Source of the DNA: Myxococcota bacterium
GTDB taxonomy: Bacteria; Myxococcota_A; UBA796; CAJQPC01
Direction of reading: 5' to 3'
Assembly: GCA_036012755.1 (NCBI GenBank)
Contig: DASCPX010000027.1
Coordinates: 128,001 to 192,000 of the forward strand
Length of the DNA: 64,000 nucleotides
The translations under genes were made by a program, and so were the position numbers. A model generated the notes under the pieces. The model had not been told where the DNA came from, did no database searches, and saw nothing but the letters and a program-made list of their open reading frames with translations. Positions within the stretch are counted from its first letter, which is position 1. The number at the start of each line of letters is the position of its first letter. This document shows positions 1,949-56,998 of the stretch, in pieces.

Positions 1949-2608
1949 ATGCTCGCTCTCGGCCTCCTGTCATGCGCGGTGAATCACGGCGTTCGACCCA
2001 TCGGAAAGGGCAACGTCGCGGCGACGGGCAGCCTGGGCGGCCCCGTCATCGAGGCCTTCGGCGCTCCCATGCCGCTGCCCCTGACCACCCTCGGTGTGCG
2101 CTACGGCATCAGCGACAACAGCGACCTGCACGCGAGCGTGCATCCCTCTCTCGCTGGCATGTTCGGGCTCATCGGCGTCGACGCCGGCGCGAGCTACCTC
2201 GTCGCACCTCAGCTGGGTCCTCGCCCTGCCGTCCTGGTCGACGGAACCCTGCTGGTCGTCGGTGGCGACACGGTCGAGGGTGAGCCCGATGGCGGCGTCC
2301 GCGCCTACGTCTCCGCAGCGACCCTGGCGAGCTGGACCTGGGGGAAGCGGGACAACCTGGTCTACGGCGGCGGCGAGCTCTTCCTCCAGCCTCGGCCGTG
2401 GCAGCTCTATGCCGCGCCGGTGGTCGGCAACCGCTTCCAGCTCACCCGCCGCCTCGGCCTCGCCCTGGAGCTCCGCTGGGTCGACCCCTGGGTCCAGACC
2501 GACGACCTCACGGTGCACTTCTACTCCCCGCGTCGCTATGGCGCCGTGAGCGTCCACGCCGGCTTCCACGTCGCCTTCGGGCCGGACTTCGCGAAGGAGC
2601 CAGGATGA
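1949..2608 (+). CDS. putative lipoprotein, beta-strand rich
   Basis: MLALGLLSC lipobox-like start; amphipathic beta pattern. Confidence 0.7.
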   Translation: MLALGLLSCAVNHGVRPIGKGNVAATGSLGGPVIEAFGAPMPLPLTTLGVRYGISDNSDLHASVHPSLAGMFGLIGVDAGASYLVAPQLGPRPAVLVDGTLLVVGGDTVEGEPDGGVRAYVSAATLASWTWGKRDNLVYGGGELFLQPRPWQLYAAPVVGNRFQLTRRLGLALELRWVDPWVQTDDLTVHFYSPRRYGAVSVHAGFHVAFGPDFAKEPG

Positions 2609-3417
2609 TCCTGCTCGTCACCGGCTGCATGACGCTCGACCCCTTCTTCTTCAACGGCGAGGTCCTCACCCAGTACGGCTTCCCGACAGAGGTCATCCCA
2701 GAGGACCGCGTCGAGGAGGTGGTGTTCGACAGCGGCGAGGAGACGCTCTACGGCATGTGGGCCTGGCAGTACCAGCCCCGCAAGCACCCCACGCTGGTGT
2801 ACTTCCACGGCAACGCCTCCCACATGGACGAGTACATGCCGCGGGTCGAGGTGCTCTGGAACTTCGGCTACAACGTCTTTCAGTTCGACTATCGGGGCTA
2901 TGGACGCTCGACTGGCTCCTCCAGCCACGACTCGGCCATCGAGGACGGCCACGCCGCGGTCGACCAGGCACTGCTCGACGCCCCGTGGCTTCGAGAGGGC
3001 AGCAACCAGCTGGCCTATGTGGGGCTGTCGCTGGGCGGTTTCGTCAGCCTCCACACCGCGCTGGACACCCCGCCCTACGCGCTGGTCACCCAGGACATGT
3101 TCGCGAGCGCAAGCGACCTCGTCGAGCTGAACTTCGGCCTGGACAGCCCGGATGGCTGGCTCTTCGAAGGCGCCTTCGACAACGCCGGAGCCGCCTCGCA
3201 GCTGGAGGTGCCCTACCTCGTCCTGCATGGGGCGGACGACTCCTACATCAAGCCCGACAACGCCGAGCGGGTCTACGCAGCCGCGAACGAGCCCAAGCGC
3301 CTCTTCCTGGTTCCCGGGGCCGACCACGCCGAGATGGCCACGGAGCAGACGGCCGTCTACGAGCAGGAGCTCGTCGGGTGGCTCGAGACCTGGGCGCCGG
3401 TGGACCCGGAGGAGTAG
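2605..3417 (+). CDS. alpha/beta hydrolase (ABHD13/BEM46-like), putative lipoprotein
   Basis: YFHGNA, DYRGYGRS, GLSLGG nucleophile elbow, LHGADD, GADH; AAGGAG RBS and ATGA overlap. Confidence 0.9.
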   Translation: MILLVTGCMTLDPFFFNGEVLTQYGFPTEVIPEDRVEEVVFDSGEETLYGMWAWQYQPRKHPTLVYFHGNASHMDEYMPRVEVLWNFGYNVFQFDYRGYGRSTGSSSHDSAIEDGHAAVDQALLDAPWLREGSNQLAYVGLSLGGFVSLHTALDTPPYALVTQDMFASASDLVELNFGLDSPDGWLFEGAFDNAGAASQLEVPYLVLHGADDSYIKPDNAERVYAAANEPKRLFLVPGADHAEMATEQTAVYEQELVGWLETWAPVDPEE

Positions 3418-3419
3418 GC

Positions 3420-4040
3420 GTGAAGAGGGGGCGGGCCCGCCGGGAGGCCATCCTCGAGCTCGCCCGGCCCTTCGTGCGCGGGCTGGTGGTCGATGTCGGT
3501 TGCGACCACGGTCACACCACCGCGGCGCTCCAGGACCTCGGCACAGCCTCGCTGGTCGTCGGCACCGAGCGCCTGTCGAGTCGCCTCCCGCGCCGCGGCG
3601 ATCTGCATCTGCTCGTCACGGACGGGCTCGCCGGCTTCGAGGTCGTCCAGCTGGCGGTGATCACCGGGATGGGTCCCCACGCCATCCTCGGAGTGCTCGA
3701 GCGGGGGCCACGACCGGCCGCGGCGGTCCTCCACTCCCCCGACCGGACCGACACCCTGCGGAGGGGGCTGAAGGCACAGGGCTGGCGCGTCGACGCGGAG
3801 AAGCTGGCGCCAGAGGGCCGGGGCTTCGCGGAGGTGATCCGCGTCCTCCCCGGCGAGGAGACCGCAGAGGGCCTCGCGCTCGACTTCGGACCCGGCCTGC
3901 TCGGGGATGCGCTCCTACAGCAGCACGTCGAGCACTTGCTCCGACACTGGACACGCATCGCCGAGGTTGCCCCGCTCGGGAGCCGCGGCCGAGCACGCGC
4001 GGAGGCCTGGATTCCCTTCCTGCGAGCCCTGCAGGGGTAG
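3420..4040 (+). CDS. trmK: tRNA (adenine22-N1)-methyltransferase TrmK-like
   Basis: VDVGCDHG, DGL, VITGMG and LRRGLKAQGWRVDAEKL...GFAEVI match the TrmK pattern; GTG start 2 nt after the upstream stop. Confidence 0.7.
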   Translation: MKRGRARREAILELARPFVRGLVVDVGCDHGHTTAALQDLGTASLVVGTERLSSRLPRRGDLHLLVTDGLAGFEVVQLAVITGMGPHAILGVLERGPRPAAAVLHSPDRTDTLRRGLKAQGWRVDAEKLAPEGRGFAEVIRVLPGEETAEGLALDFGPGLLGDALLQQHVEHLLRHWTRIAEVAPLGSRGRARAEAWIPFLRALQG

Positions 4041-4054
4041 GATTCTGGGCGTTC

Positions 4055-5794
4055 ATGCACATCCTCGGACTCTCTTGCTTCTACCACGACGCCGCAGCCT
4101 GCCTGCTCCGCGAGGGCGTCCCCGTCGCGGCCACCGACGAGCAGGCATTCACTCGCAAGAAGCACGACTCGGACTTCCCGAAACAGTCGATTCGCTTCTG
4201 CCTGGACCAGGCCGGAATCACGGCCGACAAGATCGACGCCGTAGCCTTCTACGACAAGCCGTTGATGAAGTTCGATCGCCTGCTGCGCTACCAGGTCCAT
4301 CACTTCCCATCGACCTTCCGCACCTTCGTCGATGCCATGCCGCGGTGGATCGCCACCCGCCTTCGACTCCCGAAGCTCCTGAAGGAGGAGTTCGGCTACA
4401 CGGGCCCCATCCTTTACAGCGAGCACCACCTCAGCCACGCAGCCAGCGCCTACTACACCTCGGGCTTCGACGAGGCCGCGGTGCTGACGGTCGACGGCGT
4501 CGGAGAGTGGGCGACGGCGTCCTGGGGACGCGGCGAGGGCCCGAACCTCGAGCTGCTCGGCCAGATCCGGTTCCCCCACAGCCTGGGTCTCCTGTACTCG
4601 GCCTTCACCTACTACTGCGGGTTCAAGGTCAACTCCGCCGAGTACAAGCTGATGGGCCTGGCGCCCTACGGCCAGCCGACCATGATCGACAAGGTCCGGG
4701 AGTTCATCGACGTCAAGGACGACGGCACCTTCAGGCTGAACATGAAGTACTTCGCCTACGAGCAGGGCGAGGGCATGTTCAACTCCAGCTTCGAGGACGT
4801 GATGGGGAGGCCCCGGCGACCGCTGGAGGCCAAGGACATGGACGCCTTCTACATGGACGCGGCCCGGTCGATCCAGGAGGTCACGAACGAGGTCATGATC
4901 AAGCTGGCCCGCTCGACCATGGAGCGGGCTGGAAGCAAGAACCTGTGCATGGCTGGCGGTGTCTCGCTCAACTGCGTCGCCAACGGTCACATCCTCCGGC
5001 AGACCGGCGTCGAGGACCTCTACGTCCAGCCCTCCGCTGGGGACGCCGGTGGCGCCATGGGGGCGGCCTACGTCGTATGGAACCAGCTGCTGCAGAACCC
5101 GGTCGGACCGCGGCTGCCGACGCCGTATCTCGGCCCGGGCTACGACGAAGAGCAGATCCGCGAGACCCTCGACCGCTACGGCGCGGTCTACAAGCGCCTC
5201 GAGCGGCAGGAGCTCGTCGAGACCGTCGCCGAGCTCATCGACACCGCCCACGTCGTCGGCTGGTACCAGGACCGCCGCGAGTGGGGGCCGCGGGCTCTGG
5301 GACACAGGACCATCCTGGGCGACGCCCGCCACCCGGAGATGCGCACCATCATCAACATGCGGATCAAGTTCCGGGAGGGATTCCGGCCCTTTGCGCCTAC
5401 ATGTCTCGAGGAGTACGTCGAGGACTACTTCGAGATCGATCGGCCCTCGCCGTACATGCTCCTGGTGGCCCCCGTCAAAGAGGAGCACCGCGACGGCCTC
5501 AAGGCCATCACGCACGTCGACGGCTCTGCCCGCATCCAGACCGTGAACCGTGAGCAGGAGCCTCTCTACTACGACCTCATCAAGGCCTTCTACGATCGGA
5601 CTGGCTGCCCCATCGTCATCAACACCTCCCTGAACGTCCGCGGCGAGCCCATCGTGACCACGCCAGAGGACAGCTACCTCTGCTTCATGCGGACGGACAT
5701 GGACGCCATGGCCCTGGGCCCCTTCCTGTGCATGAAAGAGGACCAGCCAGAGCTCGTGCTCCTCTCGGCGAAGGAGGAGTTCGGTCTCGACTGA
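4055..5794 (+). CDS. carbamoyltransferase (NodU/CmcH family)
   Basis: ILGLSCFYHDAAA, EHHLSHAASA, DGVGE, EYKLMGLAPYG, GPRALGHR, FRPFAP, HVDGSARIQTV, NTSLNVRGEPIV. Confidence 0.95.
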   Translation: MHILGLSCFYHDAAACLLREGVPVAATDEQAFTRKKHDSDFPKQSIRFCLDQAGITADKIDAVAFYDKPLMKFDRLLRYQVHHFPSTFRTFVDAMPRWIATRLRLPKLLKEEFGYTGPILYSEHHLSHAASAYYTSGFDEAAVLTVDGVGEWATASWGRGEGPNLELLGQIRFPHSLGLLYSAFTYYCGFKVNSAEYKLMGLAPYGQPTMIDKVREFIDVKDDGTFRLNMKYFAYEQGEGMFNSSFEDVMGRPRRPLEAKDMDAFYMDAARSIQEVTNEVMIKLARSTMERAGSKNLCMAGGVSLNCVANGHILRQTGVEDLYVQPSAGDAGGAMGAAYVVWNQLLQNPVGPRLPTPYLGPGYDEEQIRETLDRYGAVYKRLERQELVETVAELIDTAHVVGWYQDRREWGPRALGHRTILGDARHPEMRTIINMRIKFREGFRPFAPTCLEEYVEDYFEIDRPSPYMLLVAPVKEEHRDGLKAITHVDGSARIQTVNREQEPLYYDLIKAFYDRTGCPIVINTSLNVRGEPIVTTPEDSYLCFMRTDMDAMALGPFLCMKEDQPELVLLSAKEEFGLD

Positions 5795-5797
5795 GAC

Positions 5798-6346
5798 CTA
5801 CCAGGGCGGCCAGCCCCGCGCCTCGCCGCCGGTGAAGGCGATGCCGTCGAGGTCGGTCTCGCCCTCGATGTTGGCGAAGAGGTTGGTGTGGCCGTCCGAG
5901 AAGCCCAGGACCGTCACGGTGACGTCCGGGTCGTTCTCGCTGCTGTAGATGACCGGCGTGCCCTGGGTGGGAGTCAGCGAGTAGCTCATAGAGCTCACCG
6001 GGTAGGTCCCTGCGTAGCGCAGGTCCCCGTCGACGATGATCGTGATGACCTCGGCCTGGCTGTTGTCCGGGATGTTCGCGCTCAGCGAGGTCTTGGTCCA
6101 GAAGCCCTCGTCGGTGGACCACGCGGAGCCGTCCAGCGTCGCCACGAAGCTCGGGGGTTCCGGGTCGAACTCGTCTCCGTAGCTGGTGTCCTCTGTGTCG
6201 CCCTCGGAGTCGTCAGTGCCCTCGGAGTCGTCGGTGACGGGGCTGTCGTCTTCCGCCGAGTCCGCGGTCTGCTCCTTGTTCCCGCTGCAGGCGAGTGACA
6301 GCGCCAGGACGGTCCCACCACAGACGCTCAGTCGAATCGCACGCAT
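5798..6346 (-). CDS. putative lipoprotein with acidic linker
   Basis: LALSLAC lipobox followed by D/E/S/T-rich TDDSEG repeats; GGAGG RBS before MRAIRL. Confidence 0.7.
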   Translation of the reverse strand: MRAIRLSVCGGTVLALSLACSGNKEQTADSAEDDSPVTDDSEGTDDSEGDTEDTSYGDEFDPEPPSFVATLDGSAWSTDEGFWTKTSLSANIPDNSQAEVITIIVDGDLRYAGTYPVSSMSYSLTPTQGTPVIYSSENDPDVTVTVLGFSDGHTNLFANIEGETDLDGIAFTGGEARGWPPW

Positions 6347-6364
6347 GGCCACGTCCTCCAGGGT

Positions 6365-6460: not shown

Positions 6461-8116
6461 GTGCTCCTGCTCTGCGCATTGTCCACGAGCGCCCAGGCCG
6501 ACTCCTGGGCCCCGGACGCCACAATCCAAGACGCCGCCCAGCTCCAGGTGACGGAGGAAGGGCTCGACGCGATCACGGACCTCCTCCCTGCCCTGATTCC
6601 CGAGAAGATCGAGATCGGCACGGCCATCGACGAGAGCGGCGGAACGTGGTGCTTCAACTACGAGTTCTACATGGGCAACCTGTGGGTGGGCATCGAGGTG
6701 GTCGACGCCACGCTCACCCCCGGCAACGGCGTGCTCGACCTCCACGCCGACCTGCTTGTCTGGATCAACGACAGCTCCGACAAGTTCGGCCTCCAGACCG
6801 AGGTCGCCTGCATCGAGACGGACTGCCCGGGCTACGTCGAGCCCTTCCCCGTGACCATCGACACGGAGATCGCGCTCGAGATCGTCACCGACGAGTTCGG
6901 CGACCCCGCCCTGGATGCGACGGTAGGCGACATCGAGGTCATCGGGACCGACATCACCGACTACCTGATCCTCGACTGCTGGATCGGGGATCTCGAGGAG
7001 ATCCTGAACTGGGTCGGGCTGTCGCTCTACGACCTCATCTGGATGGCCGTGGAGCCAGTGCTCGCGAGCATGATCAGCGACCTCGGCCCAGAGATCGAGA
7101 CCATGATCGAGGACGCCTTCAGCCAGGCGACCATCAACGAGGAGATCGCTGTCGGTGACGCCACGCTGACGATCGAGCTCTTCCCCAGGGACGTCATCAT
7201 CACGCCGGAGGGCGTGGCGATCGCGATGTCCGGCTCGGCCACCGCTGACGCCGCCGAGTGCATCTTCGCCTACGACCCCGGCGGCTCGACGCGAACGGAC
7301 ACGCCCCTGCCGACCATGGCGGACATCCCGACCGGCACCCACATGTCGATCGAGCTCTCGGACGACTTCACGAACCAGCTGCTCTACGGGGCGTGGCGTG
7401 GCGGCGTGCTCTGCTACACCCTGCAGGGCGAGGACCCGCTGCCGATCAACACCTCGCTCCTGGGCATCATCGCCGGAGACACCTTCGACGAGCTCTTCGC
7501 CGGCGAGACCAAGCCGATGGTCATCCAGACCCGGCCGAAGGTCCCGCCCGAGGCGGTCTTCGACGGCGGCCACGATATCGACGCCCACATCGAGGATCTC
7601 GGACTCAACTTCTTCGGAGAGGTGGACGACCGCATGGCCAAGGTCGTCGGCCTCGACCTCGACATCGACGCCGGGGTCGACCTGGTCTTCGACGGCAACA
7701 CGGGGGAGCTCGCGATCGAGATCGCGCTCTCGGGTGACGACGTCGACGCGGATGTCGTCCACAACGAGCTCGTCACGGGAACCGACGAGGTCATCGAGGG
7801 CAACTTCGCCGGAGCCTTCGACACGATCCTCGAGACGGTCCTCGGCGGTCTGCTCGGAGATCTCGCCTTCGCCCTGCCCTCGATGGAAGGAGTCGGTCTC
7901 ACCGAGCTCCGCGTCGACGCGGTCGGCGCACAGGCGGACTGGCTCGGCGTCTGGGCCAACGTCGGCGTCACCCCCTACGAGGGCGGCGACTGCGGGGGCT
8001 GCGGCGGCGACAGCAGCGGATGCTCCGGTGGCTGCACCAGCGGCAGCATGCGGACCCTGACCCTCTACCTGGCCCTCCCGGCCGTCCTGGTCCTGCTCCG
8101 GCGCCGCGAGGACTGA
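6461..8116 (+). CDS. secreted acidic protein, BPI/LBP(TULIP)-like, with MYXO-CTERM-like anchor
   Basis: GAGGAG RBS; short signal peptide ending AQA; QVTEEGLD and LSDDFTNQLL..AWRGGVL motifs; C-terminal GGC-Gly/Ser-TM-RRR. Confidence 0.7.
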   Translation: MLLLCALSTSAQADSWAPDATIQDAAQLQVTEEGLDAITDLLPALIPEKIEIGTAIDESGGTWCFNYEFYMGNLWVGIEVVDATLTPGNGVLDLHADLLVWINDSSDKFGLQTEVACIETDCPGYVEPFPVTIDTEIALEIVTDEFGDPALDATVGDIEVIGTDITDYLILDCWIGDLEEILNWVGLSLYDLIWMAVEPVLASMISDLGPEIETMIEDAFSQATINEEIAVGDATLTIELFPRDVIITPEGVAIAMSGSATADAAECIFAYDPGGSTRTDTPLPTMADIPTGTHMSIELSDDFTNQLLYGAWRGGVLCYTLQGEDPLPINTSLLGIIAGDTFDELFAGETKPMVIQTRPKVPPEAVFDGGHDIDAHIEDLGLNFFGEVDDRMAKVVGLDLDIDAGVDLVFDGNTGELAIEIALSGDDVDADVVHNELVTGTDEVIEGNFAGAFDTILETVLGGLLGDLAFALPSMEGVGLTELRVDAVGAQADWLGVWANVGVTPYEGGDCGGCGGDSSGCSGGCTSGSMRTLTLYLALPAVLVLLRRRED

Positions 8117-9714
8117 TGCTGGTCCTCGTGGGGGCCGCGCTCGCCCAGGACCATCCCGCGGGCGAGCGCATCGACGAGGCCATCGCGGCGGTGGCAGGTG
8201 AGCAGGCCTTCGACCAGCTGGGCGGGCTCGTCAGCACCCTCGCTCCAGAGGCCATGGAGCTCGATCCCACCGGCGACGAGCAGGGCAGCGGCTGCTTCAA
8301 CTACGCGTACCTGATCGAGAACATGAAGGTCTACGTCGAGATCCTCGACACCCGGATCACGCCCGGAAGCGGCGTCCTGGATGTCGAGGTGGACGCAGAG
8401 ATCGCGGTGAACGACGCCTCTGATCCCTTCGACCTCACCATCGAGCTGTTCTGCAACGAGACCTACTGCCCCACCTACATCGACCCCTTCGAGGCGACGC
8501 TGATCACCGACATCGCGCTGACGCTGGTCGAGGACGCCGACGGCAACAAGGTGATGGACGCCACGGTCTCGCCCTTCACGCTCGACAACAAGCTCGCCAG
8601 CGAGGACATCCACCTCGACTGCAGCATCGCCACCGTCGAGACGGTGCTGAACATCTTCGGGCTGTCGCTCTACGAGCTCATCATCGGGATGCTGGAGTCC
8701 CAGCTCTCCGACCAGCTCGAGGACACGCGGGCCGACATGGAGCTGCAGATCGAGGAGGCCTTCGCGGACCTTCGGATCGAGGAGACCGTCGCCCTCGGTG
8801 ATGCCGAGCTCCTGATCCTGCTCGAGCCAGAGGACGTCCGCATCACCGAGACCGAGCTCACCCTGGTGCTGGCTGGCTCCGCAGAGGCCACCAGCGTCGC
8901 CGAGTGCATAGAAGACGACGACCCCGGCGCCAGCGTCGGCACCGTGGGCTCCGTGCCTGGCTCCGAGTCCCTGGACGGGCGCCACGCCGCCATCCTCGTG
9001 AGCGACGACTTCGGCAACCAGGCGGCCTACGCTGCCTGGCGCGGGGGCATGCTCTGCCAGAGCGTCTCCGATGGCGCCGGGCTGACCCTGGACACGTCGA
9101 TCCTCGCCGCGCTGACCGGTGGTGTCTACGAGCCGCTCTTCGACGAGCCCAAGCCGATGGTCCTGGCGATCCGGCCCCACGTGCCGCCCACGCTGGCCAC
9201 CACCGAGCCCAGCCCGGCCGTGGACCTCGAGCGCTTCGGCATGGACATGGTCGCGGAGGTAGACGACCGGATGGCCCGGGTGGTTGCGGTCGAGCTCGAC
9301 GCCCTGGTCGAGATCCCGATGAGCTTCGACGAGAACACCGGAGAGCTCGCCATCGACGTCGGAATCGACGAGGAGACCCTCGAGGTCGCCGTCGTCCACA
9401 ACGAGCTCGTCACGGGCACGGATGACGAGGTCGCCCTAGCCTTCGTCGATGGCATCGGGCCTTTCCTGGACCTCGCCATCGGCGCGCTCGCGGGCTCCCT
9501 GTCCTTCGACATGCCTGCCTTCGAGGGCATCGGCGTCACGGCCTTGGAGGCCGGCTTCTTCGACGACTGGCTCGTGATCGGCGTGGACCTGGGCGAGCCG
9601 CTGTATGAGCCCGCCTCTTGCGAGGACGGCTGCTCCGGCGGCTGTGGCGTGGGCGGAGGCCTCTCAGGGCTCCTGGCGATGTTGGCCGTCGGCCTCGTGC
9701 GCCGGCGCGAGTGA
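8116..9714 (+). CDS. paralogous secreted BPI/LBP-like protein with MYXO-CTERM-like anchor
   Basis: TGATG coupling; collinear with the previous gene (CFNY, PGxGVLD, GLSLYxLI, SDDFxNQ, EVDDRMA, VHNELVTGTD); GGC..TM..RRRE tail. Confidence 0.7.
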   Translation: MLVLVGAALAQDHPAGERIDEAIAAVAGEQAFDQLGGLVSTLAPEAMELDPTGDEQGSGCFNYAYLIENMKVYVEILDTRITPGSGVLDVEVDAEIAVNDASDPFDLTIELFCNETYCPTYIDPFEATLITDIALTLVEDADGNKVMDATVSPFTLDNKLASEDIHLDCSIATVETVLNIFGLSLYELIIGMLESQLSDQLEDTRADMELQIEEAFADLRIEETVALGDAELLILLEPEDVRITETELTLVLAGSAEATSVAECIEDDDPGASVGTVGSVPGSESLDGRHAAILVSDDFGNQAAYAAWRGGMLCQSVSDGAGLTLDTSILAALTGGVYEPLFDEPKPMVLAIRPHVPPTLATTEPSPAVDLERFGMDMVAEVDDRMARVVAVELDALVEIPMSFDENTGELAIDVGIDEETLEVAVVHNELVTGTDDEVALAFVDGIGPFLDLAIGALAGSLSFDMPAFEGIGVTALEAGFFDDWLVIGVDLGEPLYEPASCEDGCSGGCGVGGGLSGLLAMLAVGLVRRRE

Positions 9715-10305
9715 ATCCGCGAGTGACTCCACAAAGGCGCGACCTTCCTCGGTCGTGGAGAGGCTCCGCCAGACCGCCAGCTTCTCCTCTTCGTTCATGG
9801 TGTCCCAGGTCTCCGCCGCGAGGGCCATGAGCTCGCCACGGAGTTGCTCCAGCACCGCCTCGCGCCCCCCCTCCCCCCAGGGCAGACCATGGGCTTCGAG
9901 GCCCCGCACGTCCGCCTGCGGGTATTGGACGTCCAGGATCACGAGCCCCGAGAGCTTGCAGTGGTTGCGGCCCGACAGCTCGATCAGCCAGTGGCCCTCT
10001 CGGCCCTCCAGGCGGAGCTTGCGGAAGCCGCCGACATCTCCGGCTGGGGGAAGCGACAGCGGGTCTCCGATGCAGGCGCCGAGAGGCTTGGCGAGGGCCC
10101 ATCTCTTCTTGACCGCGATGGGGGGGTCCAGCAGGAGCTCCCGACCCACCGGATCGTAGAGGACCTGGTCGCCGTCCTCGGCCTGGAAGACCTCCACGGG
10201 ATCACCGCCGATGTGGCGATAGACCCGCGCCACTGGCTCCTCATCTCGGGCCTGCTGGGCGGCCTCCTCGACGGGCGCCGCGCACGCCAACAGGAGCAGA
10301 CTCAC
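9664..10305 (-). CDS. hypothetical lipoprotein
   Basis: MSLLLLAC start; 3' end overlaps the convergent gene by 51 nt. Confidence 0.6.
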   Translation of the reverse strand: MSLLLLACAAPVEEAAQQARDEEPVARVYRHIGGDPVEVFQAEDGDQVLYDPVGRELLLDPPIAVKKRWALAKPLGACIGDPLSLPPAGDVGGFRKLRLEGREGHWLIELSGRNHCKLSGLVILDVQYPQADVRGLEAHGLPWGEGGREAVLEQLRGELMALAAETWDTMNEEEKLAVWRSLSTTEEGRAFVESLADSLAPAHEADGQHRQEP

Positions 10306-10322: not shown

Positions 10323-10805
10323 TCAGTTGCGGACCAGGTTGTTGCAGTAGTCGGCGGAGAAGTACTCCGTGCTGTAGCTGCCGACGTCGTCACCGAAGGT
10401 GATGTCGAAGGAGCCCTCCATCAGGCCGTTGTCCTCCATGCTCTGGACCTGGAGGTTGCCGTCCCGACCGCGGTTCTCGACGAACGCGCCGCCCTTGACG
10501 GCCAGGGCCTTCGCGGCGACGGCGGCGTCACCGGCCACGTTGAAGTTGCCCTTCTGCGTCGCGTCCTCGTCGAAGCCGAACTGCAGCGCGACGAAGTCGA
10601 AGTCCGCGGGGGCCTCTGCCGCGTCGTAGGTGCGCCGCACGAAGCTCATGTCGTAGCAGGTGAGCTCCACATCCACGAAGATGACGAAGGGCCCCCCCCA
10701 GAGAGCGGTGAGCGGGTCGGAGACGGCGTACCCGTCGACCGTGCCGTCGATGACCGTAGCGTCAGGGCCGCAGCCGAGCATGGTGAGCGCGCTGAGCAGG
10801 AACAT
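10323..10805 (-). CDS. hypothetical lipoprotein
   Basis: AGAGGAG RBS before MFLLSALTMLGC; good codon usage. Confidence 0.7.
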   Translation of the reverse strand: MFLLSALTMLGCGPDATVIDGTVDGYAVSDPLTALWGGPFVIFVDVELTCYDMSFVRRTYDAAEAPADFDFVALQFGFDEDATQKGNFNVAGDAAVAAKALAVKGGAFVENRGRDGNLQVQSMEDNGLMEGSFDITFGDDVGSYSTEYFSADYCNNLVRN

Positions 10806-15358: not shown

Positions 15359-16764
15359 GAGATCACGCCGACGTCGCCTGCCAGGTCGTGGGCTCCGGTG
15401 AGGTAGGCATCGACGCTGCCGTCGCCCTTGACCGTGCCCTCGAAGGCGTCGCTGTAGGCGTCGACGACGACCTTGCCGATGACGTTGGTGCCGCTCTCCT
15501 CGGCGGACCAGGTGATCTGGAAGTCTCCGCTGCGGCCCTCGTGCTCGAGGTGGCAGACCGCCGTGAGGTAGAGGTGTCCCTTGTTCGCGACACCGTTGAC
15601 CGGTCCCGAGCAGGTCTTGGTCACGCCGTAGCGGTCAGAGGTGACGTCCGCCTCGAACCAACCGCTCTTGTCGCCATCCGCGATGGCGCCGATCGGGATC
15701 GAGCCGCCCCCGCCGCTTCCGTTGACGAGGTCGATGTAGCGATCCCAATCCCAGCCCGATCCGGGGTCCGTGTGGCAGCTCGTGCCACCACCGCCGGGGT
15801 TCGAGCAGCCCGGCACCTCGTAGTGGCCGATGATGTGGCTGCGGTCGATCGGGATTCCGTAGCGGTCGCAGATGTCGCGGGTCAGCCGCGCCGAGGCCGA
15901 GTAGAGCGCCTCCGTGTACCACTTGTCGGGCTCCGCGACGTAGCCCTCGTGCTCGATCCCGATCGAGGACTGGTTCGTGTCCCAGTGGCCGGCGTGCCAG
16001 GCGATGTCCTCTTCGTCGACCGTCTGCGTGATCTCGCCGTCAGATGACCTGACGACGTAGTGGGCGCTGGCCGAGGCCGAGGAGTTCTGGAACCAGCTGA
16101 TCGCCCCGGAGTAGCTCCCCTGGACGGTGTGGATGACGACCATGTCGACGCTGGTGCGGCTGCCGTTGGTGTAGTTCGACGAGGACGCTGGAACGAACTG
16201 AGCGATCAGCGATGAACCCGCCATCTCCTGGCGGCTGGACAAGAACGGGAAGGAGCGAGCGGCCACGGTGATGACCTCGTCGCCCTCCTCGATGACGAGC
16301 CCCCAGCTCAGGAACATGTAGACCTGAGCCGCGAAGCCCTCGGCCAGCAGCGGGTCCCGCTCACCGGAGAAGGCCGCGACGATCGGGTACCAGTCTTCGT
16401 GGGTGACGACCTCTGCCCCCCAAGCATCCTCGCGGCTGTCGGCCATCGAGGCCATCAGGGCCGCGGCGCCGCGGATGTTCTCGCAGGTGTCGAGCTCGAG
16501 CTCCTCGCTGGACACCTGGATCAGCGCGGCGGCCTTGTGGATCGACGGCGTGCTCCCGTCGACGCGGAGGTCCATGACGCCGACGCCGCCCTCTGTGCTG
16601 ATCTCCCCCGACCTGGAATCGACGCGGGTCAGGGCGTAGGAGGTGGCGATGAGGAGGTCTCGAGGGACGTCGAACTCAGCGGAGGCGTCGTCGAAGGCGA
16701 CATTCAGCGAGTGGGTGTCTGCAGACTCGGGGGTCGCGCAGGCGACCAGTGCAGCCAGGATCAT
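15328..16764 (-). CDS. N-acetylmuramoyl-L-alanine amidase (Amidase_2) lipoprotein with N-terminal SLT-like region
   Basis: VVIHTVQG, SAHYVV, AWHAG, SIGIEHEG, IIGHYEV, HTDPG; GAGGAG RBS; MILAALVAC lipobox. Confidence 0.9.
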   Translation of the reverse strand: MILAALVACATPESADTHSLNVAFDDASAEFDVPRDLLIATSYALTRVDSRSGEISTEGGVGVMDLRVDGSTPSIHKAAALIQVSSEELELDTCENIRGAAALMASMADSREDAWGAEVVTHEDWYPIVAAFSGERDPLLAEGFAAQVYMFLSWGLVIEEGDEVITVAARSFPFLSSRQEMAGSSLIAQFVPASSSNYTNGSRTSVDMVVIHTVQGSYSGAISWFQNSSASASAHYVVRSSDGEITQTVDEEDIAWHAGHWDTNQSSIGIEHEGYVAEPDKWYTEALYSASARLTRDICDRYGIPIDRSHIIGHYEVPGCSNPGGGGTSCHTDPGSGWDWDRYIDLVNGSGGGGSIPIGAIADGDKSGWFEADVTSDRYGVTKTCSGPVNGVANKGHLYLTAVCHLEHEGRSGDFQITWSAEESGTNVIGKVVVDAYSDAFEGTVKGDGSVDAYLTGAHDLAGDVGVISYEADLAVDP

Positions 16765-25032: not shown

Positions 25033-25743
25033 ATGTCGCGGACGCGCACTGCCCAGATCCTGGCGTGCTTGCTTGCCGCACTCGGCATGGGGTTCCTCGG
25101 GTGTGAGAACGTCGACGTCGAGTCGGACACCCACGAGTTCCCCAAGGTCCCGCACCCGCTCATGCCAACAGAGTATGGCTGGGGCGAGCAGGCGGACTCC
25201 GATGTCGAGTTGCGGAACTCGGTCGGGCGAACGGCACAGCCCGTCGACGACCAGCCGATCGCTTTCGATCACAGCGTCCATGCCGGCACCGTCGAGGACG
25301 GTGGCATGGGCATGGACTGCCAGTACTGCCACGCCAACGCTCGCAAGAGCAGGCACGCGGGTGTCCCTGGGGTCGAGACCTGCGAAGGCTGCCACCACCG
25401 CGGAAACGTCTCCACCGAGGGACGACCGGAGCTGGAGAAGCTGAAGGCCTACTTCCCCGGAGGCGACAAGGAGGGCCAGCCCATCCCCTGGGTCAAGGTC
25501 CACGACATCCCCGACTTCGTGCACTTCGACCACAGCCGCCACATCCAGGGCGGGCTGGAGTGTTCGGAGTGCCACGCCGACATGTCCAAGGAGACGGTCG
25601 CGGTGCGAGCCCAGTCGATGACCCTGGAGATGGGGTGGTGCCTCGAGTGCCACAACGAGCATCCAGCCGTCGAAGATAACTACGGCACCAAGGCCGAGCT
25701 GCGCCGCGCGGAGCTCAAGGACTGCTACACCTGCCACCAGTAG
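25033..25743 (+). CDS. actA: alternative complex III pentaheme cytochrome c ActA
   Basis: Five CxxCH motifs; QPIAFDHSVH, IPWVKVHDIPDFVHFDHSRH, MGWCLECH. Confidence 0.92.
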   Translation: MSRTRTAQILACLLAALGMGFLGCENVDVESDTHEFPKVPHPLMPTEYGWGEQADSDVELRNSVGRTAQPVDDQPIAFDHSVHAGTVEDGGMGMDCQYCHANARKSRHAGVPGVETCEGCHHRGNVSTEGRPELEKLKAYFPGGDKEGQPIPWVKVHDIPDFVHFDHSRHIQGGLECSECHADMSKETVAVRAQSMTLEMGWCLECHNEHPAVEDNYGTKAELRRAELKDCYTCHQ

Positions 25744-45702: not shown

Positions 45703-45786
<84 letters not shown>

Positions 45787-46345: not shown

Positions 46346-46768
46346 TCAGGGACAAGGGCTGCCGGTGAGCAGGAGCCCCGGGCACTCCGTCGCCGTCCGG
46401 TAGGTCTCCACGGCGCCGATGTCCGCTGTCGCCGCGTAGGTGATCGTGGCGTCGGTGGTGCTGTTCTGCACCGTGGCGCCACCCTCGACGTAGAGCATCG
46501 CGCTCGAGGCGTAGTTCCTGAGCAGCGCGCCGGTCGCGACGTAGATGGTCGCCTCCGGCCCGTTGTTGGTGAGGTCGGCCCCCGGACACGCGATCACGGC
46601 GGCCTGGTAGTCGTTGTTGAACTCGATGCCCGTGACCACCCGGGCGTCCGAGGGCACGGCGATCTCGCAGATCGCGACGCTCGTGTCCTGGCTGTCGATC
46701 GTCGTGACGTCGGTGTCGGAGCTCCACGGCTCCTTGTCTCCGCAGGCCAGCAACACCAGCGCTACCAC
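46346..46768 (-). CDS. hypothetical lipoprotein, beta-solenoid-like
   Basis: MVALVLLAC overlapping the upstream stop; repeated (I/L)YV..GA units. Confidence 0.6.
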   Translation of the reverse strand: MVALVLLACGDKEPWSSDTDVTTIDSQDTSVAICEIAVPSDARVVTGIEFNNDYQAAVIACPGADLTNNGPEATIYVATGALLRNYASSAMLYVEGGATVQNSTTDATITYAATADIGAVETYRTATECPGLLLTGSPCP

Positions 46769-48190: not shown

Positions 48191-51160
48191 CTACTCCTCG
48201 TCCGTCGGGTCGACGGGTGTGTTCAGCATGAAGTCCGGGATGCCCGGCGGCGTCCAGCCGTCTCCGTCGATGTCCACGAAGATCGGGTTCGTGATGGCGA
48301 AGGGCGTCACCGGGTAGACCGTCGGATGCTCCGGGGTCTCGGACAAGAGAGCGCCCACGGCATCGACGCTGGAGAGCGCCTCGGTCACGACGTCCTGGAG
48401 CTGCACCGGCGCGTAGTCCACCGGGGTGAACAGCGGCTCCATGCTCTCTGAGCCTGTCACGATGAGCACGTACCAGCTGTCTTGCTCGGGCAGGTCGACG
48501 TAGGTGTCGACCATTCGCACGACACCCTCGTCGAGCTCGGTCCACTCCTGGACGAGCTCGCCGTTTCGGTAGAGTTCCACGCGGTCGACGCTCATCCAGC
48601 TCGGCGCCTGGATCTCGATGTCGATCTCGACGTCACCCTCGACCACGACCTCGTCGCCGACGATGGCGTCCCCGACGCCGAAGCGCACGAAGGGGCCGTA
48701 GCTGGTGACGACGTGGCCGCTGCGGATGTTCTCGCTGATCTCGATGGGGTCGACCCAGCCCGGGTCGTCGGCGGAGCTCAGGACGTAGTTGCGCGGGCAT
48801 CCGGACTCGGTCGAGGTCGTCCCGTGGGTGTCGGAGTTCCCGACCGCCGTGAAGCGATAGCCGAGGTTGAGCAGGCTGAACCAGTCGTCGACCTGGCCGT
48901 GGAGGCCGTAGCCCAGCGTGTAGGTGCCCTCGTCGAGATGCTGCTGCTCCTCGAGGGTGCGCGCGAGGATCTCGAGGTGGCTGACGTCCTCGCCCGCGGC
49001 GATGCGATCGAGCTCGTCCTGGGTGGGGGTGCGGATGAAGTCGTAGCGCTTGCCGTTGAGGAGCTCGATGGCGTCGAAGTCCATGCTGAAGTTGCTCGAC
49101 GCCAGGAGCAGGTTCGTGAGCGCCAGCAGCGATGTCTCGACGAGCGGATCGTCGATGTCGCCGCCGTAGGGCGAGTAGCCGTACTGGTCGAAGTAGCCGA
49201 GGATGCCGTCCCGAGGGTGAGCGACGACCGTGACGGGGTCGATGTCCTCGACGCCGAGCTCGCGCAGATCGTCGAGCATCTCGTCCGGGGTCGCGTCGGT
49301 CCAGTCGAAGGCTCCGCCGGCGAGGGCGAGGTGGTCGTGGCCGATCGGGAATCCGAGGTAGTGGCCGGCCTCGACGGTCGTGACCTCCACTCCGGGGACC
49401 GAGGAGATCCACGGAGTCATGCCCAGGTCCTCGATGACGGGCCGGAAGTCGCTGACGAAGTCGTGATCGCTGGTGACGAGGAACTCGACGTGCTCCGAGG
49501 CCATGGTGGCCACCCGGCCCTCTGGCGAGACCCCCGAGTCGTGGGAGGGGTTGCTGTGCACGTGCAGATCAGCGCTGATCCAGCCCGTCGTGGCGACGCT
49601 GCGCAGGACCTGGAGCTCGAGGTCCACCGGTCGCGTCGCGCTCACCGAGATGCGCTGCTGGTCGATCTCGTACTCGGGACCGCGCGTGGCGTAGACGACG
49701 TAGTCGCCAGGGGGAAGGGACAGGGAGGTCGCGCCGAAGGGGTTGAAGACCACCGCCTCGGGCATGCCGCCGATGTACGAGTCGCCCAACACGGGGTCGC
49801 GCACGAGGGGCTCGCCGTCGTCGCGGTGGACCGTGATCTTGCTGGGCACGAGCAGCCCGTCCTCGTCGACCACGCTGACGTCGAGGTGCCCGGCGCGGGG
49901 AGCGACCAGGGTCAGACCCTCGACGCTGCGGCCCTCTACGACATCGACCGGGACGCGGGGCCCCGTGCCGGCGCCCCCATCGTGTACGACCAGATCGTAG
50001 GCACCTGGCGGCAGGGTGCCGCCGAAGCTCCCATCCGGGTGGTGATCCTCCCACCCCACGTCGCTCTCCCACTGAGAGAACGGAGCGTCCTCGCCTCGCA
50101 CGTAGACGAGCACATCGACGCCGCTGAGGGACTCGAGGCTTCCCTCTTCCACGACGAAGCCCTCGACCCGACCGCGCGGGGTGCCCCGAGCCTCGAGGAT
50201 CCCGTCGAGCACGCTGCCGACGTCGCCTTTGCCGACGAAGAACATGCGCTCGTAGGTGAACGCGCTGCCCGCCGGGAAGCGTTCCTCCGGGGGCAGCGTG
50301 CCCTCCAGTCCGGCGCCGAAGGTGGCTGTCTGACTGGACGTGAACAGCGGCACGTAGACAGGGCCATCCGCCATCGCCAGGCCGTAGCTGATGCCGTCTG
50401 CGGTGCCTGCGACGAAGTCGAGCTCGAAGGGCTCGAGGAAGGTGTTCTGACCATTGGCGGCGGCGTCCTGGACCGCGCCGTTCTCGTCGAAGCCGATGGT
50501 GGGGGCGAAGACGTTCATGTCGCCGCCCTGGAGGTAGAAGTCACCGAAGGAGAGCCCGGTCTCGATCGCGTACTCCAACAGCGGCAGATCAGGGGTGGCC
50601 CCGAGCTCCACGGCGTCGTCCGGGTACTGGTCCCACTCGGCGAAGTACGCCGTGGTCCGGATGGTCACCCAGGGCTGGCCTGGCTCCACGATGTAGTCGG
50701 TGGCGATGCTGAAGTCCGGAGCCTCGATGATGGCCCAGAGCCCCTTCAGGAGCTTCAGGAAGGGCTCCTGCGGCGCCATCACGCGGACGACCGCGGCGCC
50801 TCCGTCCGAGCCGTCGCTCAGGATCTCGACGGTCCCCTCTCCCTCCATCGCGTACATGACGTTCATGTTGACGGTCGGGAAGAGCTCCGCGAGGCGGTCG
50901 TTGCCGAAGCCCGAGCCCGTCCCTCCAGATGCGCGGTTCAGGTCCGCGTCGATGAGGCTTCCCCCGAAGAGCGATGGCCCCATGGATGCACCGGTCTGCG
51001 TGATCGCGACCCGGATGCGGTCGTTCTCGAGCAGGATGTCCCCCGGCCTGGCGAGCGCCTTTGGCCCACCGATGGTGTCCGAGAGGTCCTCGATCAGCGT
51101 TGCCGATGCGTAGGGCTGAGGGGGTGTTTCACAGGACAGCAGGAGGGCGAGAGGCGTCAT
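48191..51160 (-). CDS. CehA/McbA-family PHP metallohydrolase, lipoprotein
   Basis: ADLHVHS, SDHD, GVEVT, AHPR, DAIELLNG, GNSDTH, PRNY; MTPLALLLSC. Confidence 0.85.
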   Translation of the reverse strand: MTPLALLLSCETPPQPYASATLIEDLSDTIGGPKALARPGDILLENDRIRVAITQTGASMGPSLFGGSLIDADLNRASGGTGSGFGNDRLAELFPTVNMNVMYAMEGEGTVEILSDGSDGGAAVVRVMAPQEPFLKLLKGLWAIIEAPDFSIATDYIVEPGQPWVTIRTTAYFAEWDQYPDDAVELGATPDLPLLEYAIETGLSFGDFYLQGGDMNVFAPTIGFDENGAVQDAAANGQNTFLEPFELDFVAGTADGISYGLAMADGPVYVPLFTSSQTATFGAGLEGTLPPEERFPAGSAFTYERMFFVGKGDVGSVLDGILEARGTPRGRVEGFVVEEGSLESLSGVDVLVYVRGEDAPFSQWESDVGWEDHHPDGSFGGTLPPGAYDLVVHDGGAGTGPRVPVDVVEGRSVEGLTLVAPRAGHLDVSVVDEDGLLVPSKITVHRDDGEPLVRDPVLGDSYIGGMPEAVVFNPFGATSLSLPPGDYVVYATRGPEYEIDQQRISVSATRPVDLELQVLRSVATTGWISADLHVHSNPSHDSGVSPEGRVATMASEHVEFLVTSDHDFVSDFRPVIEDLGMTPWISSVPGVEVTTVEAGHYLGFPIGHDHLALAGGAFDWTDATPDEMLDDLRELGVEDIDPVTVVAHPRDGILGYFDQYGYSPYGGDIDDPLVETSLLALTNLLLASSNFSMDFDAIELLNGKRYDFIRTPTQDELDRIAAGEDVSHLEILARTLEEQQHLDEGTYTLGYGLHGQVDDWFSLLNLGYRFTAVGNSDTHGTTSTESGCPRNYVLSSADDPGWVDPIEISENIRSGHVVTSYGPFVRFGVGDAIVGDEVVVEGDVEIDIEIQAPSWMSVDRVELYRNGELVQEWTELDEGVVRMVDTYVDLPEQDSWYVLIVTGSESMEPLFTPVDYAPVQLQDVVTEALSSVDAVGALLSETPEHPTVYPVTPFAITNPIFVDIDGDGWTPPGIPDFMLNTPVDPTDEE

Positions 51161-54802: not shown

Positions 54803-56520
54803 TCGAGGTCCAGCGCGAACACGGCGTCGAGACCCTCTCCTTCGAGGAGTTCGAGAGGCAGGTCCGACGTGGGGACATCCCATCCGAGACGCTCGTCCGG
54901 ATGGAGGTGCTCACCGGCAAGGACTTCAAGCCGGTCGGCGAGCTCGAGCTCTACCAGACACTGGCCGATCCAGAGGACCTCGCCTACGAGCGGCGGCTCC
55001 GCAACGACCCGCCCATCGTGACCGCCCTGTTGGTCGGCGTGCAACTGCGCATCTACCTCTGGAGCAAGGCGCCGGGAGCCGGCGACTGGCTCCTCGATCA
55101 CGCCACCAACTGGGCCCCGGCCGTGTTGGAGTCCGGCGAGGTCTACAGGCTCCTGTCATACGGCGGGCTCCACATGAGCCTCACGCACGCGGCCTTGAAC
55201 ATGCTGTTCCTCGCCTACGCCGGCTGGAACCTCGAGCGCGCCATGGGCCGCCGCAACCTCCTGACCGTGTTCTTCTTCTCGGTCTTCGTCGGCGGGCTGA
55301 TGTCCATGTTCTTGAGCCCGGGACGTCCTTCACTCGGGGCGAGCGGTGGCGACTTCGGGCTCATCGCTGCGGCCGTCGTCTTCGGCTGGAAGCACGAAGA
55401 CCGCCTCCCAGCCTCCGCCCGCAAGTACTTCGGTTGGGCCATCCTCCCCTACCTGGTGTACCCCCTGTGCCTGGGGCTCCTGTCGTCGACCGTCGACAAC
55501 TGGGGCCACCTGGGCGGACTGCTCGGTGGTGCCGCGACGGCGACCTGGCTGCAGCCTGAGGGCTTCAGCCGCTACGCCTCCGCCAACCGCATCGTGCGAC
55601 GGGTAGTGGTGCTGGTGAGCGCGCTGGTCCTGGCCGGGCTCTTCATCTGGGGACCGCGACTGGTCAAGCTCGAGCATCGGAGCGCGCCGAGCGGGCTGGC
55701 CCTGGGTGTTCCCCTCGGCTGGCACGAGGGCTGGGCCTTCACCGAGGATCGCGGGTGGACCTCGCCGACCGGGGCCACGACCCTGGTGGCGACGACCAAG
55801 ACCTACCGGCGTCCCCTCTCACCGGACGAGGCTGTCGAGGCCCTCGTCGAGCAGGTCGAGGCTGGGGGTGATGTGCAGCGTCACGACGTGCGCGCCTTGG
55901 AGGTCGACGGCTGGCCGGCCAGGGAGGTCGAGCTGGACTTCGATCTCGGCGGGGAGCCCCAGGTCATGCATGCCCTGGTCGTCGTGGAGGGCCCCACGGT
56001 GCATCGGGTCCACCTCCACGGCAGCCAGGAGCGGGCTCGCAGATCGAGGCAGCTCGCCGAGCACGTCTTCTCCCTGGTCGAGGTCCAGGACCCCCAGGTC
56101 CTCGTCGCGGCGCGCGAGAAGGCAGCGCGCAACCCGCGCTCGTGGAAGGCGAACCTCCAGGTCGCCAGACTGGAAGCGCTCTACGGCTACCCCGAGGCCT
56201 CGTGGGAGGCCTACCGGCGGGCCTATCGCGACGCCTCCGAGCGCAAGCCGGAGATCGCGGCGGGCATCCTCGATCTGTACGCCGACTACGGCGAGGGACC
56301 GGAGCCCGAGCGCATCGACCAGCTGATCGAAGCCCACTGGCGACATCCATCGGTCGCGGCCACGGGGGCTGACGCCCTCGATCGAATGGGGCGAGACGCC
56401 GATGCCATCGCGCTGTTGGACGAGGCATGGGTGGCGACCGGCGGAGACTTCGTGGTGCGGCGCGCGCGGGAGTCCCGCGGCCTGTCGTCGGATCCGCCCG
56501 GTCCTATTCCTGGTCCGTGA
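54799..56520 (+). CDS. rhomboid intramembrane serine protease with N-terminal GYF_2-like and C-terminal soluble/TPR domains
   Basis: YRLL..GGLH..HAALN, LGASGG, WGHLGG; ATGA overlap with queG. Confidence 0.9.
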   Translation: MIEVQREHGVETLSFEEFERQVRRGDIPSETLVRMEVLTGKDFKPVGELELYQTLADPEDLAYERRLRNDPPIVTALLVGVQLRIYLWSKAPGAGDWLLDHATNWAPAVLESGEVYRLLSYGGLHMSLTHAALNMLFLAYAGWNLERAMGRRNLLTVFFFSVFVGGLMSMFLSPGRPSLGASGGDFGLIAAAVVFGWKHEDRLPASARKYFGWAILPYLVYPLCLGLLSSTVDNWGHLGGLLGGAATATWLQPEGFSRYASANRIVRRVVVLVSALVLAGLFIWGPRLVKLEHRSAPSGLALGVPLGWHEGWAFTEDRGWTSPTGATTLVATTKTYRRPLSPDEAVEALVEQVEAGGDVQRHDVRALEVDGWPAREVELDFDLGGEPQVMHALVVVEGPTVHRVHLHGSQERARRSRQLAEHVFSLVEVQDPQVLVAAREKAARNPRSWKANLQVARLEALYGYPEASWEAYRRAYRDASERKPEIAAGILDLYADYGEGPEPERIDQLIEAHWRHPSVAATGADALDRMGRDADAIALLDEAWVATGGDFVVRRARESRGLSSDPPGPIPGP

Positions 56521-56998
56521 CCAGGCGCCCGCTCAGCGTGCCGTCAACGGTCAGCACGCCAGAGTCCCCGGCGGAGGTCTGCCAGGTGTCGACGGCGCTG
56601 TAGATGCCGCTGAGCTCGTCGCCCTGCCAGATGATGTTCGCGTTCCAGGCGACATCATGGTCCGAGAACTGGGCCCCGGTGTCACCGAGCGTGGTGTTGT
56701 CGCTCGTCCAGTCCGTGCCGACCGTCTTGAGCGTGAAGGCGTTGCAGTTGTCGGAGTCCGGGACGTACTTCGCGGAGAACTCCTGCCCCTCGATCAGGAT
56801 GCGGAAGGTGGAGTTGGCTCCGACGTAGGTCAACTGCCACTCTCGCTCCCCGTTGTAGAAGGGCGCGTAGGTCGGCATCACGCTGTCTTCGGGGTTGTCG
56901 TGGTTGCTGACCGACGAGAACACCGAGTAGGTACCGGCGATCCGGGATGCATCGGTGCACTCGTTCGAGCAAGCCAGAAGGCCCAGGAGCACAGTCAT
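56504..56998 (-). CDS. hypothetical lipoprotein
   Basis: GAGGTG RBS; MTVLLGLLAC; beta-rich. Confidence 0.7.
   Translation of the reverse strand: MTVLLGLLACSNECTDASRIAGTYSVFSSVSNHDNPEDSVMPTYAPFYNGEREWQLTYVGANSTFRILIEGQEFSAKYVPDSDNCNAFTLKTVGTDWTSDNTTLGDTGAQFSDHDVAWNANIIWQGDELSGIYSAVDTWQTSAGDSGVLTVDGTLSGRLVTDQE

Follow-up and report, generated by a model that had tools for sequence, protein, structure and literature searches.

Introduction

Bacterial signal peptides are regarded, almost without exception, as tripartite, having a basic n-region and being long enough to cross the membrane, and predictors build on this scheme. The canonical Sec/signal peptidase (SPase) II lipoprotein signal is composed of an n-region, an h-region and a lipobox, and has 16–26 residues on average (PMC8689077). 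In SignalP 6.0, for example, the n-region comprises two residues or more, and h- and c-regions are labelled as well (PMC9287161). In this study, a 64,000-nucleotide stretch of DNA (the window) from a bacterium of order UBA796 was analysed, in which many exported-looking proteins start with a Leu-rich, uncharged stub: Met and 5–12 residues, ending in a lipobox Cys or an Ala-X-Ala site. According to the sequence analyses described below, these stubs likely act as true Sec signals (probability about 70%), which would have been shortened gene by gene in an order with a possibly permissive SecY.

Like Sec/SPase II signals, the short lipoprotein signals have a Cys after a small residue and a Leu-rich core, and are followed by an acidic disordered tether; Lgt, LspA, Lnt, LolA and LolCDE are encoded. 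They differ in that the basic n-region is missing, the Cys is located at 7–11 rather than 17–27, and Leu is dominant at position −2. Like Sec/SPase I signals, the stubs without Cys have a hydrophobic core and then an Ala-X-Ala-type site, and they are found on BamA, BamD, DegP, LolA and a porin. However, they have about 8–16 residues in total and no Lys/Arg, whereas the Escherichia coli orthologs have basic signals of 20–26 residues. The leaders of type IV prepilins and archaellins (SPase III) are also very short, and were the only "minimal signal" matches in the parts of the literature that the search covered. Those leaders are hydrophilic; they are removed at the cytoplasmic face of the membrane, and a hydrophobic helix follows the cleavage site. 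In the case of the short signals, the leader itself is hydrophobic and the mature start is acidic.

No description of the trait was found in the literature searched, whose coverage excluded supplements and most subscription journals. In the available part of a preprint that mentions UBA796 (10.64898/2026.07.10.737566), the terms signal peptide and lipoprotein do not occur.

Sequence data and gene calling

The window corresponds to positions 128001–192000 of contig C27 of the studied genome, G000 (assembly of 6.73 Mb, 96% complete), and its GC content is 68.6%. Relatives within the order and outgroups are labelled by G numbers (G002, G012, G022 and so on). In a SecY tree, G000, 27 order-level relatives and the named records UBA796 and UBA2957 form one clade (support 100/99). 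As this clade includes the UBA796 and UBA2957 records, the group is called order UBA796. The class UBA796 is placed in Myxococcota_A (10.64898/2026.07.10.737566). The metagenome runs that match G000 best are marine. Contigs of run X5, which is not marked as a possible source of the window, are identical to window positions 1300–2431 and 2433–6673.

Genes were called by a purpose-written hexamer caller with a ribosome-binding-site model. The analysed set contains 5551 genes (closed 5' end, at least 80 codons) from 5869 called. For the non-coding comparison, hydrophobic Cys at 7–12 was sought in 20626 frames with the same lipobox filter. The order genomes are kin and not independent samples, and the lipoprotein counts taken from their DNA are samples.

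Short signals in the window

The original prediction, made from the window alone, listed 12 short, hydrophobic and uncharged N-termini, and all 12 were found at their coordinates and strands. A 13th (10770..10805) was absent from that list. The 13 signals, three canonical controls and one false positive are as follows.

1949..1975, + strand: short lipoprotein signal, Cys9; in-frame stop three codons upstream; TAnnnT −10-like element, leaderless-like; protein of 219 residues, no family
2605..2628, + strand: short lipoprotein signal, Cys8; Shine–Dalgarno (SD) motif AAGGAG; alpha/beta hydrolase
6461..6499, + strand: 13-residue uncharged SPase I-type signal; GTG start; stop 11 codons upstream; protein of 551 residues with MYXO-CTERM-like C-terminus
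8116..8145, + strand: 10-residue uncharged SPase I-type signal; start overlaps the upstream stop; MYXO-CTERM-like end
10282..10305, − strand: short lipoprotein signal, Cys8; GTG start
10770..10805, − strand: short lipoprotein signal, Cys12; SD AGGAG; the 13th case
16738..16764, − strand: short lipoprotein signal, Cys9; SD motif; stop seven codons upstream; N-acetylmuramoyl-L-alanine amidase (Amidase_2)
23163..23186, − strand: short lipoprotein signal, Cys8; SD GGAG; protein of 590 residues
36757..36777, + strand: short lipoprotein signal, Cys7; GTG start overlaps the 3' end of the upstream gene
46742..46768, − strand: short lipoprotein signal, Cys9; GTG start overlaps the 3' end of the upstream gene
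51131..51160, − strand: short lipoprotein signal, Cys10; stop four codons upstream; CehA/McbA-family metallohydrolase of 989 residues
51199..51231, + strand: 11-residue uncharged SPase I-type signal; outer-membrane protein of the porin O/P family
56969..56998, − strand: short lipoprotein signal, Cys10; SD GAGGT
6287..6346, − strand: control, canonical lipoprotein signal, Cys20, two Arg
25033..25104, + strand: control, canonical lipoprotein signal, Cys24; multiheme cytochrome c, first gene of an alternative complex III-like operon
60109..60171, − strand: control, canonical basic signal; gamma-glutamyltranspeptidase
4055..4078, + strand: false positive, hydrophobic start with Cys8; NodU-like carbamoyltransferase, most likely cytoplasmic

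The ribosome-binding-site motifs cited in that list were found at 2605, 6461, 16764, 23186 and 56998; the start at 8116 overlaps the upstream stop, and that at 1949 looks leaderless. In front of six of the 12 starts (1949, 6461, 10305, 16764, 36757 and 51160) no in-frame ATG, GTG or TTG is present back to the upstream stop, and at 1949, 6461, 16764 and 51160 in-frame CTG is likewise missing. At 56998 a single upstream GTG lies three codons up, within the SD of the gene itself, and would give one Arg and 13 residues to the Cys. For the remaining five, in-frame start codons are located at least 14 codons up, within neighbouring genes, and the intervening sequence is not signal-like. As had also been stated, canonical signals coexist in the window, at 6346 (−), 25033 (+) and 60171 (−). 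The cargo labels amidase and porin (O/P) hold, the PHP hydrolase is assigned to the CehA/McbA metallohydrolases, and the "lipase" is identifiable as an alpha/beta hydrolase only. For nine of the 13 short-signal proteins, no family match above the cut-off was obtained in the libraries scanned.

The region 6461–9714 encodes tandem paralogs (40% identity) without Pfam or NCBIfam family, each with a Cys/Gly-rich linker followed by the MYXO-CTERM-like tail. The two exported-protein genes at 51160 (−) and 51199 (+) are arranged head to head, with start codons 38 nt apart.

Genome-wide abundance and start codons

The original prediction had proposed the distance from start codon to Cys as a genome-wide check. 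In G000 the counts of Cys positions peak at 7–11, with the mode at position 8 (325 over a baseline of about 75 among the 5551 genes). When the most upstream start was forced for every gene, the peak at position 8 remained (252). Under the same forced starts, a hydrophobic lipobox Cys at 7–12 was detected in 482 of the 5551 genes and in 22 of the 20626 non-coding frames. The lipobox filter gave 783 signals with Cys at position 12 or earlier (mode 8) and 223 longer signals, and about 78% of the predicted lipoproteins in G000 use a short signal. For SPase I-type signals a heuristic gave 404 short uncharged against 103 long basic cases, a class that contains false positives. The short lipoprotein and short Ala-X-Ala classes together make up about 21% of the analysed genes (more than 1100).

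The start codons of the 783 short lipoprotein genes were inspected. A near-cognate in-frame upstream start is missing in 204, and a stop lies within three codons upstream in 132. An SD motif of at least four bases precedes 407 of the starts, and 184 genes are coupled to an upstream stop. The in-frame GC contents at codon positions 1/2/3 are 0.71/0.66/0.60 upstream, 0.58/0.43/0.86 in the signal and 0.71/0.46/0.90 in the mature part; codon periodicity is present in the signal codons and missing from the upstream DNA. The element TAnnnT is located 11–14 nt before the start in 146 of 783 short-signal genes, compared with 13 of 223 long-signal genes and 374 of 4545 others (p = 7e-7, 9e-17).

Several artefacts were considered and rejected. 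Recoding of TAG is not indicated, as TAG terminates 1495 genes and is a working stop. A GC artefact does not apply, as short signals are also present in G029, with 47% GC. An expression bias is not indicated either: the per-codon coding score shows no difference between short-signal and canonical lipoprotein genes (p = 0.2). The short charge-free signals are almost certainly a real genome-wide feature, and the claim that their starts are not mis-called agrees with the most-upstream-start test, the missing upstream codon periodicity and the short starts of orthologs.

Judged by the TAnnnT element, about 10% of all G000 genes (533 of 5551) are likely leaderless; among the short-signal lipoprotein genes the share is 19%. 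Its TAG is frequently the in-frame stop three codons upstream.

Composition of the signals

The residue at −1 to the Cys is Ala, Gly or Ser in 81% of 981 genes with the first Cys at 7–11 (unfiltered), compared with 30% of 1131 controls. In the short lipoprotein signals, Leu occupies −3 (consensus Leu or Val) in 62% and −2 in 62%, and Ala, Ser, Thr, Val or Ile occupy −2 in only about 27%. In a set of 402 genes, A/V/S-x-A ends peak at residues 10–11 (82 and 79, background about 15). The mean Kyte–Doolittle hydropathy per residue is 2.85–2.95 for Cys 7–8 and about 2.2 for Cys 17–19. The short lipoprotein signals have neither a positively charged n-region nor a length of 16–26 residues, and the short SPase I-type signals have neither a basic n-region nor a length of about 18–30 residues.

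The charge changes sharply with length: Lys and Arg are almost absent up to Cys 10 and usual from Cys 16 onwards. The unfiltered numbers of genes with Lys or Arg ahead of the Cys are 14 of 656 for Cys 7–10, 11 of 88 for 11–12, 13 of 41 for 13–14, 11 of 21 for position 15, and 61 of 73 for 16–18; all unfiltered short signals taken together give 21 of 763, compared with 160 of 220 at Cys 14–24. Within residues 2–5, Lys or Arg is found in 35% of all genes. If six hydrophobic residues suffice, the classical model predicts many starts in which Met-Arg precedes that core, but such starts are not common. We infer a topological rule: a stub too short to cross the bilayer must be free of any tether in the cytoplasm.

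Cargo proteins

The mature parts resemble those of canonical lipoproteins. The net charge after the Cys is −2.25 for short and −2.36 for canonical lipoproteins (other genes, −0.4), and Asp amounts to 10.9% and 10.3% of the mature part, respectively (other genes, 6.5%). Short signals are present on BamA (13 residues), CpoB (Cys9), OmpA-like proteins, BamD, one of two LolA, and 24 CxxCH proteins, of which 16 are lipoprotein-type. The DegP homolog that matches best has a signal of 10 residues, with a stop three codons up. For Pal and TolB, the best homologs retain long basic signals. MYXO-CTERM-like ends are found in 40 of 402 hydrophobic-start proteins and in 120 of the 5551 genes overall. BamA, BamD, LolA, DegP, porins, cytochromes c and MYXO-CTERM proteins cannot function in the cytoplasm. 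The cargo families thus support the earlier claim that the mature parts must leave the cytoplasm, and the short-signal proteins are probably exported and processed by the ordinary pathway.

The BamD homolog (locus L418 on contig C149 of G000) has no lipobox Cys. It carries a 14-residue uncharged Ala-X-Ala-type signal, and may be a soluble periplasmic BamD. YajC, encoded on C27, has a short uncharged Ala-X-Ala-type segment before its transmembrane helix.

Orthologs and distribution in order UBA796

In the 292 kb examined of G002, a genome of the same genus, 11 of 12 orthologs of short lipoproteins are likewise short and uncharged. The signal residues differ and the upstream sequence is unconserved, whereas the spacing between SD motif and start is conserved among orthologs. 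The alignment of ortholog N-termini proposed in the original prediction thus retains the short start. Three swaps between long and short signals were found, in G002 and G012. BamA orthologs are only partly informative, many of them having long N-terminal extensions.

CpoB provides a series over the whole class, as the Cys motif that opens its mature part is shared throughout. Of 22 order genomes, nine (from families f1, f6 and f7) have a short uncharged CpoB signal and 11 a long one; one case is ambiguous, and in one the Cys is missing. In the class outgroups the signal is long and basic (5 of 5). Sister genomes differ in CpoB signal length, which points to repeated shortening. Pal, encoded upstream of CpoB in the same operon, has a long signal at every locus where it was found (24 of 27), with Lys or Arg in nearly all.

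A Met-to-Cys8 DNA pattern gave 75 matches in G000, up to 131 in relatives, and at least 20 in 16 of 60 order genomes; outside the order at most 11 were found (341 genomes). A Cys10 pattern gave at least 10 matches in 77 of 110 order genomes and three or fewer in 14 of 110; outside the order, at most nine were found (60 chosen genomes). Among sampled lipoprotein calls, 18 of 24 in G012 and 23 of 33 in G002 are short, compared with 2 of 28 in four outgroups. No short call was obtained in the samples of G022, G026, G021 and G095 (20 calls); G021 has 43 Cys10-pattern matches, and its 80-kb sample (3 calls) is too small. The trait had been predicted to be lineage-wide. It is graded within order UBA796, and was not found outside.

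Export and lipoprotein machinery

G000 encodes SecY, SecE, SecG, SecA, SecDF, YajC, YidC, Ffh, FtsY and the signal recognition particle (SRP) RNA, as well as three SPase I, five Lgt, two LspA, Lnt, LolCDE and two LolA. Lgt residues R143 and R239 of the catalytic set are kept in all five copies and G142 in four, and the two LspA align across both aspartate motifs. The original prediction suggested Lgt, Lsp and SRP machinery adapted to minimal signals, which is not supported in that form. Lgt expansion is rejected as an adaptation, as 3–5 copies occur in 25 of 25 order genomes, 2–7 in 10 class outgroups and 1–6 in 20 others, and three to seven Lgt paralogs are usual in the phylum. The lspA-lspA-lgt-lgt cluster of G000 (C59, positions 99967–102591; loci L008, L036 and L038) resembles the lspA1-lspA2-lgt operon of Myxococcus xanthus (PMC8689077), with tandem lspA adjoining lgt. 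No trait-linked difference between the two was found; the arrangement is ancestral context, and tandem lspA is likewise rejected as an adaptation. Loss of SRP is rejected by Ffh, FtsY and SRP RNA in G000 and by Ffh in 30 of 30 relatives. The Ffh M domain is ordinary without diagnostic change, and SecE shows no diagnostic change by eye among 26 aligned sequences. FtsY, SRP RNA and SecA look ordinary as well, apart from the SecA substitutions given below. Lost formylation or deformylation is rejected by the presence of fmt, two def and two map genes in G000.

All five Lgt have Cys at the position of E. coli N146, and four of the five lack His at the H103 position.

The idea of an adapted Sec machinery retains two order-wide candidate features, chiefly that in SecY, and both also occur in members that lack the trait. 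In SecA (L317–L346), N369S and L372Y are present in 25 of 25 order sequences; among only seven outgroups compared, all seven have Asn and six have Leu. These positions lie near A373, which we take to be a prlD position. In SecY, all 30 order sequences have Ala or Ser at the position of E. coli I187, and all 30 have Thr, Ala or Val at that of F192. Both class outgroups retain I187 and F192. I82 (28 of 30), I86, I191, I278, I408, F67 and G69 are unchanged in the order; S282 is replaced by Ala in five and by Thr in two of the 30 sequences. I187 is a member of the isoleucine ring, whose positions host prlA suppressors (PMC2171872), and prl alleles are proposed to destabilize the closed channel (PMC3164448). 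The order may be compared with E. coli prlA strains (PMC3164448, PMC2171872), as a small residue replaces a pore-ring isoleucine in every member examined and defective-looking signals are routine.

Proposed mechanism and alternatives

According to the mechanism that we propose, a very hydrophobic stub together with targeting features of the mature chain would engage SecA or SRP and open the lateral gate of SecY; mature domains carry targeting signals (PMC5412566). The charge-free stub, too short for the bilayer, would then slide into the outer leaflet with its Cys or Ala-X-Ala site facing the periplasm-side enzymes, where Lgt would lipidate the Cys and LspA or SPase I would remove the stub. 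Signals that keep Lys or Arg would have to remain about 13–16 residues or longer. This sliding model is proposed tentatively, at somewhat less than even odds. Retention of the N-formyl group on the stubs would fit, and SRP is known to block deformylation (PMC5454389). A looser pore of SecY (I187A/S, F192T) may have rendered the order permissive, and the signals may then have eroded gene by gene, by deletion or by a recruited internal Met or Val codon, often on leaderless transcripts. More speculatively, the stub could be a natural "half-bilayer" signal: a leucine stub of 6–7 residues capped by formyl-Met, never anchored in the cytoplasm and served by a naturally prl-like SecY. A new lipoprotein would then be a very small mutational step away, which may underlie the roughly 1000 lipoprotein genes of G000 (18% of its genes).

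Several results weigh against our reading. The change in SecY is not exclusive, since among 147 aligned representatives of 50% clusters in the background, 17 have Ala or Ser at 187, and three of these add Thr or Val at 192. It is also present in G022, G026 and G095, which have few or no short signals, and can thus be permissive at most. Unlike the prlA alleles, it is natural, order-wide and present in trait-poor members. The alleles named in the available part of PMC2171872 are G69, I191, I278, S282 and I408, not I187, and G69, I191, I278 and I408 are unchanged in the order. Twelve further SecY columns separate the order from the background, and divergence of the lineage would thus by itself produce some differences of this kind. 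A causal role of the SecY change in the trait appears doubtful. The charge depletion could partly be a by-product of n-region loss and not of selection. On the technical side, our simple caller missed at least one lgt gene, and the lipobox filter imposes part of the composition and lets in some cytoplasmic enzymes. Export, lipidation and cleavage of the short-signal proteins are themselves deduced from sequence. In 149 of the 783 short lipoprotein genes (about 19%), an ATG, GTG or TTG within 25 codons upstream could extend the protein with Lys or Arg, and in 37 of the 149 the upstream start has a better SD than the chosen one.

The last point would be expected if the starts were mis-called, and upstream non-canonical codons, readthrough or a frameshift supplied a basic n-region. 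However, such an extension is equally possible in control genes (21% of 3125), 132 of the genes have a stop within three codons, and 146 have the −10-like element 11–14 nt before the start. The upstream DNA is non-periodic and unconserved among orthologs with conserved SD–start spacing, and TAG is a working stop. For the majority of cases mis-calling is already contradicted, and as a general explanation it is highly improbable. Hardly more probable is a lack of export or processing, with the stub serving as a membrane anchor that is never cleaved or as an acylation tag in the cytoplasm. Some pattern matches are indeed cytoplasmic enzymes, such as that at 4055, and Leu at −2 (62%) is outside the A/S/T/V/I consensus (PMC8689077). 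The presence of short signals on BamA, BamD, LolA, DegP, a porin, cytochromes c and MYXO-CTERM cargo is against this explanation, and the small −1 residue and the Ala-X-Ala peak at 10–11 fit the peptidase rules.

The other two alternatives accept export. The stubs could take a separate route, parallel to the canonical one of Pal and TolB, by a dedicated receptor, YidC assistance, head-first threading, or one specialized Lgt, LspA or SPase paralog. Two signal classes with a sharp charge switch, a Pal signal that is long in all 24 genomes where it was found, and five Lgt, two LspA and three SPase I paralogs that could divide labour are consistent with such a route. But intermediate lengths occur, orthologs of close relatives swap class, outgroups without the trait have equal paralog numbers, and no additional export gene was seen adjoining lgt, lspA or lepB; we consider this route improbable. 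Owing to the same swaps, the short stubs are taken as the Sec signal in an extreme form, and the separate export code suggested in the original prediction is not supported. It is also possible, though on balance unlikely, that no adaptation is involved: many bacteria would be able to handle such Leu-rich stubs with their standard Sec, Lgt and LspA, and the order would simply have drifted to the lower limit. Such drift is compatible with most of the mechanism proposed above, the sole difference being the permissive step. Ffh, SecE, the number of Lgt and the LspA operon show no diagnostic change, the SecY change and the trait have different distributions among the order members, and the short signals are more hydrophobic per residue than the long ones. 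Nevertheless, the trait is confined to one order, whereas erosion should be common if stubs worked everywhere.

More than 1100 genes, essential envelope proteins included, appear to manage without the tripartite signal. If the stubs are working signals as proposed, the lower limit set for an export signal would have to be revised. The role of n-region charge and the minimum length, both long-standing questions, become testable through hundreds of naturally occurring minimal signals, orthologs that differ in the signal only and a candidate natural suppressor translocon. It is also implied that secretome counts and start calls from standard pipelines are probably wrong for this widespread uncultured order.

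Other features of the window

The alternative complex III-like operon at 25033–32630 encodes the multiheme cytochrome c, a molybdopterin/Fe-S subunit with a twin-Arg start, membrane subunits and a cytochrome c. A rhomboid-family protease of 573 residues with long additional regions is encoded at 54799–56520. A tandem-domain microcompartment shell protein at 57045–57695 has a below-cutoff match to CcmP (259.9 bits), and no obvious shell neighbours are present. One tRNA gene (45703–45786) is the sole Rfam match of the window.

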